Below, one piece after another: positions 7,683 to 13,399 of a stretch of 20,841 bases of DNA (within the stretch, counting starts at the first letter, position 1; each line of letters begins with the position of its first letter). Location of the stretch: the NCBI GenBank assembly GCA_005191425.1, contig SUPR01000066.1, positions 1-20,841 on the forward strand. The letters are read 5' to 3'. This DNA is from Candidatus Helarchaeota ASGARD archaeon Hel_GB_B (GTDB lineage: Archaea; Asgardarchaeota; Lokiarchaeia; Helarchaeales; HEL-GB-B). The notes under the pieces were generated by a model. That model was not told the origin of the DNA. It did not search any database and saw only the letters and a list, made by a program, of their open reading frames with translations. Position numbers and translations under genes: made by a program.

Positions 7683-8501
7683 ATGGCTATTTTAGGTATT
7701 TTTATTCAGTCAAAAAATGGAATTCCAGTATATAAAGAAACATGGTCTCCAAAAATAAAAGCGCTTGATGAAGGAGATGAATTATTAATATCCGGGTTTA
7801 TGAGTGCTATAAGTCAATTTGCAAATACATTTAAGCAAGATATAGCTTATATTAGATTTATACCACTTGAGTTTGCAAATGACAAAGGAATAGATTCAAT
7901 TTTGGTAGATTTAAAAGAATATTTAGTATTTGTATTTGTAGACCCATATCAATTTCATGATATGGTAAAAATTAAATTAGATATTATTTACAATCATGTC
8001 CTAAGTAAATATAAAAAGAATTTATCATATGGAAAAACGATTAAATTATCTCAAGATGACAGATCTTTTTGTTCAAAAATATTACATGATTCTTTAATTA
8101 AGGATTATATAAGTCAAAAGAGAATAATGTTAATTGAAACATTAGATTTATTTATAAATAATAACCCCGAAATTAGAGGCATTTCTATCAATTCATTTGA
8201 TAATACAATATTATTTAATTATAATATAGAACGAACTTATTTAGAAAATTTATTATATATGATGGGTAGTGGTATTACAAAAGTATCTGAATATGAAATA
8301 ATTCATAAACCTGTTATTGAAGATGGTGATTCTTTATTGGTTTGTTTAACAAATCCAGCAATTTCTTTTGATTTATCAGAGATAGGAGATAATATTGATT
8401 ATAATGTACCTTTATATTATTATGTTATTACAGATGCAGATTCTTCAATTGGCCCTTTAATTGGAGCTCTAATTGATATTATAAATCCAATTTTTTATTA
8501 A
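7683..8501 (+). CDS. Longin-like domain protein with a second roadblock/longin-like domain
   Basis: N-terminal ILGIFIQSKNGIPVYKETW...DELLISGFMSAISQFA is a longin pattern (beta-beta-helix, LxSGFxSAI). The second half IRGISINSFDNTILFNYN resembles a roadblock/profilin-like start. Confidence 0.65.
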   Translation: MAILGIFIQSKNGIPVYKETWSPKIKALDEGDELLISGFMSAISQFANTFKQDIAYIRFIPLEFANDKGIDSILVDLKEYLVFVFVDPYQFHDMVKIKLDIIYNHVLSKYKKNLSYGKTIKLSQDDRSFCSKILHDSLIKDYISQKRIMLIETLDLFINNNPEIRGISINSFDNTILFNYNIERTYLENLLYMMGSGITKVSEYEIIHKPVIEDGDSLLVCLTNPAISFDLSEIGDNIDYNVPLYYYVITDADSSIGPLIGALIDIINPIFY

Positions 8502-8512
8502 ATTTTTTAGTC

Positions 8513-11500
8513 TTATTTCTTATTATTATCTTGAGATTTTTCGGTCTTTTTTTCTTTTTTTAAAAGATTTTTAGGTTTTTTAGGGATTCTGGGACTACCA
8601 CCTCGAATTTTATCAAATTGAATTTTGTCATTTTTGTCTGTTTGTAATTCAGGACAGTCATTTTACTTATCAATTTTCACAGGACTTGGTGGTGGAGTCT
8701 TAATTTTTATTTTAGTAGTGGGCTCTTCTATTTTTATTTCGATAGGTTTTTCTGAATTTTGTAGATCATTATTTTGATCATTTTTGTTATAGGAATCTTG
8801 TGAATGATAAATTGCTTTAATACCTGTTTCTGTAAGGTTTAGGTCGTTATAATTGTCAATAAATCCGTTGTCAATTAGAAATGTTATATCTAATTTTACT
8901 TTTTCAATTTCCAAATCACAATATGTGGCTATAAGGTCAAATGACTTTAGGCCGTCATTAATGGAATTAAGAATTTTTAATAGTTCTTTATTTAAGACTA
9001 ATGGGACATGTTTTTCGACTAAAGGTTCTCTATGGGAAACAATTGAACTAAATGGAAAAATTGTATTGGTTAATTTATCAATATTCATAAATATATTAAT
9101 GTCTCCAGTCCATGCCAATAATTGGGCTTGGTATTTTGTTTCAAATAAGAAAATAAATTCCTTTAATTTTTTTCTAATAATTGGGAGGTCAGCTTCTGCA
9201 AGAATTGCTTCGATGACTTGATCGCCATATTCAAATATTATTTTTTTGTCCATATGGTCTATTGTTTTCAATTTTTTTTGGCTTGAAGTAAGTTCTTTTA
9301 CCATTCCTCTAATACCCATTAAAGCTGCCGAAACTAGTTGAGAATCCATTTGTATCTTGGTAAGTGCGCGGTCATAAATAGCAACTCCATCATGAGCATG
9401 TATAATATAAAGTCGTTTAATTTTTCGTTCCCAATTTCTAGATTTCAACTTTTGTTCAAATTTATAACCTGCAAATACGGCTATTAATGCAGCACTAATC
9501 CCTAAAAGCCAGCCCCATTGAATATACCAAGGAGTTGCTATAGTTTTTTCAATTATAGTTAGGGGTATAGATAATGTTTGAATGGAATAATTTTCTTTTT
9601 CAATATAAATAACTATAGAATAAGGTTGTGACCTTGGAGGAATATTGAATTGTATGTGAATATAATATCGACCCGGATAACTTTTATCTTCAAGGAAAAA
9701 ACCTTCTCTCCCTAAAAAGAAATATGAGACATTAGCATTTATAATTGGTTTATCGCTTACTTTTTCTTTTAATCAAATTTCTAACTCTATTGTACTTCCA
9801 GAATATTGGACTAATGAATTCGGACTTGTAATGTTAATTTGAAGGGGAATTATTTTTAAAACTATATTTGTGGAAACAAATCCAAAATTATTACTAGAGA
9901 TTACTATATAATAAGTCCCAATTTCTAAGAAAGATGAGTTCAGGGTAAAGTAATAAAAGCCATTTCCCAGCTCAGTTAGGTTATTAATACCAATAGAAAT
10001 TTCATAATAACTTAAAGTTGCACCTAATATTGGTCTGCCATCTGAAAAATTATACGAAACTGTTATATTTATTAAATCCTTAAAAGGAACCTCAAAATAA
10101 GGCTTTAATGAATAGATATATGTTGGGACATTTTGAATTGTAACTGGAATTATTATAGAAGAAAAAGAATAATTTTCCTTAGAGAAATCAAGTATCAAGT
10201 CATATGGGACAACTCTCGGGGAAATTGACGCAGTAATTGAAGTATTATAATGCCCAGGTCTACCATATAATGATAAATCAGTTAAATTACCATTTAATGA
10301 TTGTAAAACATACGAAACGAAAACTCCAGAAACAGGTATATTGTGGTCAGTGTCATTGATATTTATTTCCAATGTAAAATTATTTAAAGTTTCTATAGAG
10401 ATTGCTGTTGGATATTCTATTTTAGTATCAATTTTTCTAATAGTTAGCAAGGCTTGTGTAGAAACAATTCCATATTTTGTGCCACATAAATTGATATAAT
10501 AACTTCCTATGCTTAATTTGCTTGAATTTATTGTAAAATAATACATTCCTGAATTTAATTCTTTTAAATTTCCAGTCCCAATTGTAGGTTCACTGTACGT
10601 CAAATTTGCACTTAGAATAGAGTTACCCATTGAATCATTAAAAATAGCCGTGATATTTATCTGATCTCCGATAGGTATTATAAAGTTGGGCTGAGTCACA
10701 TAAATATATGTTGTCCTTGCGTCTACTTGAAAAATATAGGTAGAATTAATATAATTTTTATGCGTTGCATTTATAATAATTGTATGAACACCTTCAAAAG
10801 GTAAATCTGAAGTTTCTAGATTAATTCCATAATATCCTCCACCCAACGAATTTAATTTTTTAATAACTGGCATATGAGAAGAGTTCGTCCAATTACATTG
10901 TACATCAGCATCTAATACCGGTTTATTACTATCATTATCATTTAATATTATTTCTAAATAAGTTAAGTCCCCAAATTTTTTATAAATAATGTTGTATTTT
11001 GATAAATCTTGAGGATAATTTGGAATTATTTTTAATTTATGGAGTATAGTAAAATTTCCTTCAATGTAACCTGCTTCATTTGATCCCATCCAATTAACTT
11101 CATATTTATAAACACCAATAGTTGAATTTAATCCAGAAATGGTAATGTTAGGAAAAATGCATACTCCATCATTTTTAGGGTTAGTTGAATTAAAAAACCA
11201 GATTTCATTATTAGGGTCTGTAATAGTCAAATTAACTTTATAATTTTCCACATTTTTTGGTATTTCGTTGGTCAAATTTCTAATAGTGGCTATAATATGA
11301 GATGTATTTCCCGGATAAAAAATTAAATTGTTTTCCCATTTATTTCCATTTAAAATTTGACTTGAAGTATTTACGATATAATTTATTGATATTACTTTAA
11401 TAGTCCAATATCCATCAGGAAAATTTGTGAGGTTATTTGTATTAACTTGGAATTTGTTACCATATAAATTACCAAATTGACATAACCCTCTTAAATTATT

Positions 11501-13399
11501 GGTAGAATTTATTGGTTCATATACATCAGTAATATTCCAGTCAATTGGTTTCGAGAAATTAAAGAAATGGTTTTTATATTTTGAAGGGACTTGAATATAA
11601 GGAGTAAATGTCCATGAATTATTTGCATTATTGATGGTATTTACGGTTGGTGTCAATTGGGTATTTTTGTTAATAAATAAATTTAAATCACAATCAAATG
11701 AAATTTCCGCATCCGTAGTAATATTATTAAAGGGATACCAATTAAAGAAGACTTCTATATTTCTAGTAGTTGAATTATAAACAAAATTGTTTGTTTGTAT
11801 AAATATACCTTTTCCAAATTCACCTTTATTCTCATTTGTAATGTTATTTGCTGTAATATTAATTTGAGACGGAAGAGCTTTTGTCTTTAAAAATAAATGA
11901 AAATTATCAATCCAGACTTCCGGACTTGGGTCTGACCCACTATATACGACTGAAGATGTAGATTGCAGACCAATTTTAATATTTGTTAAAGATAAACTTA
12001 GATACTTTGGATTTATTGGAATTAACCCAGTATTATACCAAATATTTTTATCAGAAATTTCATCAAAATGTAAATTAAAAACTTTTTTTAATGAACTTTT
12101 CTGAGAGAATAATTCAACATCAATAGAATCTGAATTTGGATAATATCCTAAATTTCCAAGAGCTTGTATAATTTTTTCTGCAGAATCGGAAGTACCATCA
12201 TCGACCACCAGGATATTTTTTATATTAGAAGGGTCTAAATATTCAAGAGTTCGGTTTAATATTAATGTCCTATTAATTTCGCTTGCAATAGAAGCAAAAT
12301 TTAAAGAATGAAACATAGTTTTGTTTGTTCTCACACCTGCATAGTCGCCAGTATCGAATTTAAGGCAGTTAATACCACCATTGGTCCGGTTAATATTGTC
12401 TATTTCATTAGCATCTATTAAACTCATATTATATATTCCATTATAAGGGTCAGATATTCCACTTATTGATGACTTATCGCTAAATGAAATATATGTGACA
12501 TTAAAATATTGACTGAGCCAATCATCCCAATTTGGGGAGCTAATTGAATCGTATGCTATTGAACTACCAGTCATATAGACTTTTCCACCATTATCAAGAT
12601 AATTTCCAATTTCAGTCTGTTCTTCTAAAGATAAAATATCGGTTAAAGTATCACCAGTTGACCAAATAGCAATATCATCATTTGAAACCAAGGGGTTTCC
12701 ACTCCAATCAGTGGTCCAATAAGAATACGTTTTATTTGGATTTTGAGGACGTGTACTATTAACTGCTACAAAGATATTAAATCCAAGTGATGATAAATCC
12801 CAACTATATGCATTTACCTTATAATCAAAACTTAAATATGCCTCAGAAATATCATCTCTATTTATATTTGTCAGGTTCTGAGAAACATATATTGAGTCTA
12901 ATTTATTATAAGAAGTTTCACCTGATACTGTTTCACTGTCCATTTTCATATATATACAACTTGAATCATCTAGCCCAGTTCCATTGAAACCAATATACCA
13001 AGAATCACCTGTTTTATTATGAAACGTATATAAACTCCAATTATTTGGATATTCAAACCCAGAATCAGTTATCCAATCCCTTTTCTCTTTTAAATTGTAA
13101 ATATTTCCTATTAATAAATAGGGAGTCCAAGATGGTGGAAGTGGGACTCCAGCTTGTCCTATATTTGTTAGTTTAGTCGTATAATTATATGTAATTAATA
13201 AATTAAAAATAGAATCTGTCCTATTTGCATATTCATTAATAGTTATTGGATCTCCTCGAGTAGATAATAAATTATTCTTAACTGAAATCTCATTTGAGAT
13301 ATGCATTGAATCAATTGAATTTATTTCATTAATATAAGTGATTATAAGTATAATTATAAATAGCAAAAATATTAAAATAAAAAACCTTTTTGACTTCAT
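8513..13399 (-). CDS. Receptor-like surface protein (~1628 codons): N-terminal signal/anchor, large ectodomain with Ig-like repeats, TM helix, longin-like domain, winged helix, Pro/Lys-rich tail. Interrupted by in-frame TGA (9773-9775) and probably TAA (8663-8665); may be a pseudogene or contain assembly errors.
   Basis: Track ORFs 9773..13399 and 8663..9448 share a frame, and the intervening 108 codons are open. They complete an Ig-like repeat and encode TM WYIQWGWLLGISAALIAVFAGY. A further 49 open codons follow the TAA, ending at TAA 8513-8515. Confidence 0.75.
9540..10711 (-). repeat. Tandem duplication of a ~196-aa two-domain Ig-like unit
   Basis: TYIY starts at 10711 and 10123 (588-nt period). 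Paired motifs: INITAIF/INITVSY, ELNSGMYYFTINSS/ELGNGFYYFTLNSS, PGHY..PRVVPY..KENYS/PGRY..PRSQPY..KENYS. Confidence 0.85.

Follow-up and report, generated by a model that had tools for sequence, protein, structure and literature searches.

A probable young pseudogene of a giant Asgard surface-protein family with a cytoplasmic longin fold in Candidatus Helarchaeota Hel_GB_B

Contig SUPR01000066.1 of the Candidatus Helarchaeota archaeon Hel_GB_B (NCBI GenBank assembly GCA_005191425.1) carries, on the minus strand at positions 13399-8513, a large gene that is interrupted by in-frame stop codons; the window analysed here is the whole stretch of 20,841 nucleotides (nt), positions 1 to 20,841 of the forward strand. 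This locus is very likely a recently inactivated, and thus young, pseudogene of an apparently undescribed Asgard surface-protein family and not a case of readthrough, because two sister haplotypes (A and B) carry different stops, purifying selection appears relaxed, TGA is an ordinary stop in this genome, and orthologues are intact. Taken as a whole, it is probably best explained as an inactivated copy of a genuine single-gene surface protein, and its architecture is that of one real gene family: giant Asgard surface proteins with a cytoplasmic longin fold. An earlier note, made from the DNA letters alone, had proposed a working single-pass receptor whose frame is joined across a TGA. The joining was correct, since haplotype B and the intact orthologues have an open frame at codon 1209; the working receptor is not borne out for this copy, which is a nonsense allele under relaxed selection with its sister haplotype broken elsewhere. 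The joined frame is thus the right ancestral protein and not a recoding event, and the intact orthologues are the ones to use.

Read from an ATG at 13399, the gene forms a single frame of 1628 codons, in which codon 1209 is an in-frame TGA (9775-9773) and codon 1579 a second stop, TAA (8665-8663), followed by 49 further codons and a final TAA at codon 1629 (8515-8513). The two internal stops are TGG>TGA (W1209*) and CAA>TAA changes, respectively. Gene calling with translation table 11 yields an open reading frame (ORF) of 1208 amino acids (aa; 13399-9773) and another of 261 aa (9448-8663) in the same minus-strand frame, i.e. the split into two genes that had been anticipated. The interval first proposed, 8513-13399, does span the gene, although its end passes the TAA at codon 1579, which had gone unmentioned. 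The gene and its nonsense positions are as follows.

8513..13399, minus strand: whole ancestral gene, 1628 codons with two in-frame stops (the colinear haplotype B reads W1209 and Q1579)
9773..9775, minus strand: W1209 changed to the stop TGA (haplotype B and the same-genus orthologue keep TGG)
8663..8665, minus strand: Q1579 changed to the stop TAA, the second of the two (haplotype B keeps CAA)
12878..12880, minus strand: codon 174, CAG here and TAG in haplotype B (haplotype comparison; L076, L077, L078, L080)

Allele A, with TGA at W1209 and TAA at Q1579, is that of the window. Haplotype B (JGI 3300033149, three NCBI genomes and ENA ERZ27248458) is colinear with the window gene over 4887 nt with no insertions or deletions, and reads TGG at 1209 and CAA at 1579. 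At codon 174, where the window has CAG, it has TAG (Q174*), and the 1392-aa protein called downstream of this stop is without the signal segment. The stops of A (*1209, *1579) and of B (*174) are each one C>T-type change, and each is found in several assemblies. The W1209 stop sits early in the last immunoglobulin (Ig)-like repeat, and strain A most likely yields at most an unanchored fragment of 1208 aa. The exact DNA pattern around the TGA found no match in the metagenome collection.

Intact full-length homologues had been called for in Asgard proteomes, and they exist across Helarchaeales in sizes of 1483-2472 aa. In three other Helarchaeales genomes the region after the TGA is part of unbroken frames, 1483, 1570 and 1664 aa long, and it also lies in proteins of 1827 and 2472 aa at the same sulfatase-flanked locus; orthologues are present in Hel_GB_A and LW55_61. 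The same-genus orthologue has TGG at the position of the TGA, and its tail matches the 49 codons that follow the TAA. An arrangement as two genes, each with a start of its own, was rejected: the orthologues are fused in one frame, and the only restart codon between the TGA and the longin domain, a TTG at codon 1318, comes after the transmembrane (TM) helix.

Comparison of haplotypes A and B shows 31 codons of the gene with non-synonymous changes, of which 28 are missense and three nonsense, and 15 codons with synonymous changes. The corresponding non-synonymous:synonymous counts are 20:40 for eight neighbours and 82:188 for 28 genes at two other loci, and against these combined (102:228) the gene stands apart (Fisher p 4e-6). 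Three paralogous giant surface proteins, taken as a fast-evolving control, gave 9:8, 17:18 and 15:30 (pooled 41:56; p 0.007, or 0.017 for missense changes only). The ratio does not differ from neutral (p 0.3-0.6 at kappa 3-8), and it is alike before codon 1209 (25:12) and after it (6:3). Derived changes lie on both the A and the B branches, and at least 10 missense changes upstream of the stop are derived in A. Because the ratio exceeds those of flanking genes and paralogues, purifying selection on the gene appears to be relaxed, and the pattern fits near-neutral drift between the haplotypes. Two separate blocks (L120 17418-19719 and L121 21236-23432) show differences between A and B at 10-20% of their synonymous sites, as against ~1% elsewhere, which suggests recombination tracts from a more distant donor.

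Drift is not the only way to lose a gene twice, and the loss could have been selected in parallel in both strains, e.g. as an escape from a virus that uses the protein as its receptor. The different stops of the two sister haplotypes would agree with this, as would a stop in a paralogue in haplotype B (R218*) and the finding of internal stops in only ~1% of compared genes. We nevertheless consider parallel selection improbable: three nonsense changes among 31 non-synonymous ones are what drift after a first hit would give, these genes are five times the average length and, once the gene chosen for being broken is set aside, one of six paralogue alleles is hit. The stopped paralogue, C132 (L121 9230-13774; G000 C132 2054-6598), is intact here and interrupted at codon 218 in haplotype B, while other assemblies keep its frame open. 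Other genes with internal stops relative to the sister species, among which all three stop types occur, are C86:367, C171:33932, C150:928, C160:12016, C26:23871 and C26:23787 of this genome (G000).

Strain A might instead keep a useful truncated ectodomain of 1208 aa, secreted or held at its N-terminus, as a decoy or matrix protein from which the tail was dropped. The stop does fall late, with the head and four of the five stalk repeats before it, and up to that point allele A is unbroken. However, the ratio is no lower before the stop than after it, the missense changes derived in A include those upstream of it, the truncation falls within the second strand of a repeat, and in haplotype B the stop at codon 174 abolishes this very ectodomain, all of which makes a retained ectodomain quite unlikely.

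Programmed readthrough or recoding (as Trp, as selenocysteine or under a changed code), which would let one gene encode both a complete receptor and a shed form, could appeal to a frame that is open on both sides of the TGA and to the position of the TGA at a Trp. Yet the TGA is not conserved, with TGG or another aromatic codon in all relatives, and it is a normal stop in this genome, where it terminates 341 long ORFs, the median read-on past it being 7 codons. At positions where the sister species has Trp, this genome has 1284 TGG and 5 TGA, and four of the latter were judged to lie in antisense shadow frames. The 100 nt downstream of the stop, the stretch covered, fold no better than shuffles (-14.1 vs -13.4 +/- 3.1 kcal/mol), the sister haplotype is broken by a TAG elsewhere, and a TAA also occurs in the gene. 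Genetic code 4, selenocysteine and readthrough were accordingly rejected, the TGA being unconserved, a normal stop elsewhere and without stimulatory structure, and the chances of recoding seem to us minimal. Eight tRNAs were called in the genome. Sequencing or assembly errors in an intact gene, which a metagenome assembly might suggest, are just as hard to credit: both stops recur unchanged in ENA ERZ27227322, a record with 12 other differences from the window over 15.6 kb, ENA ERZ2433807 likewise has the TGA and the JGI proteins terminate at the same residues, even if assemblies carrying allele A may have source samples in common, and Q174* is present in five other assembly records.

Some points nonetheless weigh against inactivation. 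No intact allele of this species was found among the 11 cluster members, and leaky readthrough or a stable truncated product may occur in strain A. Finally, the omega of 0.54-0.80 between A and B, which varies with the transition bias assumed, is a noisy quantity within a species and draws on 46 changes only.

The ancestral protein encoded by the joined frame is composed of the following parts.

13328..13399, minus strand: N-terminal signal peptide or signal anchor, aa 1-24 (strongly hydrophobic, Kyte-Doolittle up to 2.99)
11873..13099, minus strand: jelly-roll head with a fold like that of carbohydrate-binding modules (CBM), ~aa 101-509, split by an inserted domain (AlphaFold2 model, VIA)
12095..12730, minus strand: inserted alpha/beta GATase-like domain, ~aa 224-435, circularly permuted (homologue comparison)
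11033..11389, minus strand: macroglobulin (MG)-type Ig beta-sandwich, aa 671-789 (VIA Z 11-12 to MG domains of C5, TEP1 and alpha2-macroglobulin)
9548..11026, minus strand: stalk of five invasin/Big_1-like repeats of ~98 aa, aa 792-1284 (repeat profile vs PDB)
9461..9529, minus strand: single TM helix, ~aa 1291-1313, then a basic R-x-W-E motif (model, homologue alignment)
9047..9424, minus strand: longin domain, aa 1326-1451 (VIA, Foldseek, model)
8795..9007, minus strand: winged helix, aa 1465-1535 (VIA)
8516..8794, minus strand: low-complexity Pro/Lys tail with PRIP motif, cut by the second stop (PRIP repeats in orthologues)

The first 1290 residues contain 52 N-x-S/T sequons where 26 are expected from composition, and the cytoplasmic part contains one, in agreement with the NxS/T-rich ectodomain of ~1290 aa first described. 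The AlphaFold2 model of the head has a predicted local distance difference test (pLDDT) score of 84.6, and its jelly roll resembles, by VIA, an alginate CBM (8zqf, Z 13.1), a hyaluronan-binding module (4d0q, Z 13.0) and a CBM16 (2zew, Z 12.3), a fold that is also common to MAM and reelin domains. With Foldseek, the 746-aa head model retrieved weak and mixed beta-sandwich matches only. The GATase-like insert of ~210 aa, with an Atlas feature score of 0.94 to DUF4960, is probably non-catalytic, and many Asgard homologues are without it and have their jelly-roll flanks joined directly. It is circularly permuted, because its first strand-helix unit stands after the domain here and before it in other Asgard proteins (L089/L094/L095); the permuted form is common to P0026, P0032 and the G003 orthologue.

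Searches of Pfam and PDB sequences with the two gene halves returned nothing significant, and single stalk repeats lie below the Pfam cut-offs. A profile built from 33 stalk repeats, by contrast, matches invasin structures in the PDB (5n40, E 1.8e-5; 5ldy, E 7.3e-5), so that the Ig-like character attributed to the ectodomain holds. Invasins are anchored by an outer-membrane barrel. Stalk repeats number five here, seven in the orthologue P0026 and 13 in the orthologue P0024, and stalk length changes in steps of ~196 aa, i.e. pairs of alternating repeats (5, 7 and 13 repeats among P0024, P0025 and P0026). In an ENA contig (L082 1-3680) the sequence passes from window position 10178, within the stalk, into radical-SAM and oxidoreductase genes that were not found in this genome; this junction is either an assembly chimera or a real ectodomain deletion.

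The TM helix is only moderately hydrophobic, yet in the model that covers it together with the cytoplasmic part (pLDDT 72) it is a single long helix, and it is alignable across homologues, as a single-pass topology would have it. For both cytoplasmic domains the motifs quoted in the earlier note are present and the folds were recovered by structure search, the longin with VIA and Foldseek (E 3.6e-5) and the winged helix with VIA. Model residues 42-168 match CPLANE chain C (7q3d, Z 13.6), Sec22 (3egd, 13.1), synbindin (12.9), AP-3 sigma (12.7) and VAMP7 (12.6), and the longin topology beta-beta-alpha-beta-beta-beta-alpha-alpha is present (strands 43-50 and 56-61, helix 69-88, strands 95-98, 101-107 and 111-117, helices 122-138 and 156-163), with Z 13.6-12.3 to solved longins. 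Among Pfam longin families, Intu_longin_1 appeared in 3 of 19 members (best E 0.021) and Fuz_longin_1 in one, all under the cut-off. The longin is the best-conserved part of the protein, with 76-81% to close orthologues vs ~55-65% for most of the ectodomain; this copy carries G1397E in core strand 5, where no other aligned homologue is charged. Two longin copies are modelled as a homodimer via helix 1/strand 3 (interface residues 65-103) with an ipSAE of 0.70 vs 0.23 for the best control, the mark applied being reached by 20 of 30 solved homodimers and one of 23 monomers; runs agree in at least 97% of contacts, with pLDDT of at least 89.

Model residues 181-251 form a three-helix bundle plus a minimal wing of the MarR type (Z 11.3, root-mean-square deviation (rmsd) 2.2 over 70 aa; Z 11.1, rmsd 1.4 over 68 aa), and in the orthologue P0027 the family PF24409 is over its cut-off (32.6 bits vs 27). 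The winged helix of the intact orthologues could be a DNA-binding module, which would make them membrane-tethered one-component regulators with a logic like that of ToxR or CadC. Its best matches are indeed MarR-family regulators, and the domain is basic in more distant Helarchaeales orthologues (net charge +4 to +6, a crude proxy for DNA binding). In this copy, however, the net charge is -6, and it is -4 to -8 in the five closest sequences; the wing is minimal, and in many homologues that keep TM and longin the winged helix is missing or swapped for other domains. Moreover, Asgard winged-helix domains often serve protein contacts in endosomal sorting complex required for transport (ESCRT) systems, according to the passages on them in PMC10936438. 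A regulator of this kind is therefore unlikely, and the nucleic-acid binding once suggested is unsupported and not favoured, given the acidic charge in close orthologues.

How widespread the arrangement is can be judged from the TM-longin module, for which the 50%-identity representatives include 885 relatives at E <=0.001. The best 150 of these comprise, by rough hydropathy classes, ~82 multi-pass proteins, 23 with large ectodomains, 32 with a short N-terminal part and 13 without a TM segment. Longin-like segments number 29 in this genome, and three of these belong to intact giant surface paralogues. All but one of the 45 family loci found in the genome collection are titled Asgard or uncultured archaea, the exception being a contig labelled Deferrimicrobium.

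The intact orthologues would act as N-glycosylated adhesins or lectins whose stalks differ in length and which bind glycans on a surface or a partner cell. Two copies would pair via the alpha1/beta3 edge of the longin, as the model supports, and the result would be a longin-dimer platform tethered to the membrane, similar to those on which small GTPases dock in TRAPP and Mon1-Ccz1, with the winged helix and the PRIP tail acting as protein-interaction sites. We infer a role in signal transduction for the intact protein, and give the GTPase-platform mechanism somewhat less than an even chance. The likeliest client of such a platform would be a small GTPase, by analogy with TRAPP, Mon1-Ccz1 and MglB (PMC10933270). 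Going further, intact members may be undescribed single-pass receptors in which binding of a glycan or partner cell by the lectin-like head clusters the proteins and the longin dimer serves as a guanine nucleotide exchange factor or docking platform for small GTPases; in a prokaryote, cell contact would then be linked to GTPase-driven membrane remodelling, and sister strains would shed members, possibly under viral pressure. This extension is speculative and rather doubtful. Two considerations tell against a GTPase platform: no GTPase is encoded beside the gene and no partner was identified, and the score of the longin dimer may reflect likeness to solved longin dimers (e.g. 8yqg and Mon1-Ccz1). 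Another intact paralogue, on C134 (L123 8001-15583), has a 393-aa Arf/Rag-like small GTPase encoded two genes away and, upstream, a cluster of transglutaminase-like, DUF4350 and MoxR genes, and is a candidate locus for a longin-GTPase link. A TM-anchored longin beneath an adhesin would, if true, be one direct way for Asgard archaea to bring longin platforms and small GTPases to a membrane without prenylation.

One neighbour of the gene calls for comment.

7683..8501, plus strand: convergent gene of 272 aa with a weakly longin-like N-terminus (hhalign probability 38.9%)

This gene adjoins the pseudogene's counterparts in L083 and L084 and not in G001, G003 and G005; with adjacency lost in the latter three, it was not accepted as a dedicated partner. 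In haplotype B (L076 11278-12942), a 554-aa MULE-family transposase that is absent from the window lies between the 272-aa gene and a 232-aa gene. Elsewhere in the window, a leucine-rich repeat gene at the contig end (18959-20841, minus) stays open for 53 codons up to an in-frame TGA, beyond which comes a Cys-rich stretch, and RadA/Rad51 (604-1821, minus) has either ~100 extra N-terminal residues before its HhH domain or a mis-set start.

The component parts of this protein are known from other systems; no paper in the literature searched was found to describe the single-pass fusion of adhesin, longin and winged helix. Eukaryotic longins (Sec22, VAMP7, AP sigma/mu-N, synbindin/sedlin of TRAPP, Mon1-Ccz1, Fuzzy-Inturned, SRX) have the same fold (Z 12-13.6, ~120 residues, rmsd 2.4-2.9) and share the alpha1/beta3 dimer edge predicted here, but identity is only 7-17%, and no Pfam longin family is over its cut-off for this longin. 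Unlike in eukaryotic longins, the domain here follows a TM helix beneath a 1290-aa ectodomain. In longin SNAREs the longin is N-terminal and there is no large ectodomain. Closer in taxonomy, Asgard longin/roadblock proteins (PMC10933270; PDB 8yqg) have the same dimer-forming longin fold (Z 10.3 to 8yqg); fusions to GTPase, roadblock and TRAPPC3 domains were listed by Tran et al. (2024, PMC10933270), in a text where the word transmembrane is absent. Similarly, Asgard multidomain ESCRT-related proteins with longin, Ig-like and HTH/PCI domains use the same domain vocabulary, but carry Vps28-C or steadiness-box domains, neither of which was found here, and the passages on them in PMC10936438 do not describe a single-pass surface layout. 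Asgard adhesin-like proteins (bioRxiv 10.1101/2025.07.22.663070), together with invasin/intimin Big_1 adhesins, are alike in their signal sequence, beta-sandwich stalk, distal globular head and membrane anchor, although no cytoplasmic longin-winged helix module is reported for the Asgard proteins (bioRxiv 10.1101/2025.07.22.663070). As to its decay, this copy appears to be an ordinary young pseudogene: like the nonsense pseudogenes of AT-rich prokaryotes it shows stops of the C>T type at Trp and Gln codons, further hits after the first and an omega approaching 1, and nothing essential differs from them, with two sister haplotypes here carrying different first stops.

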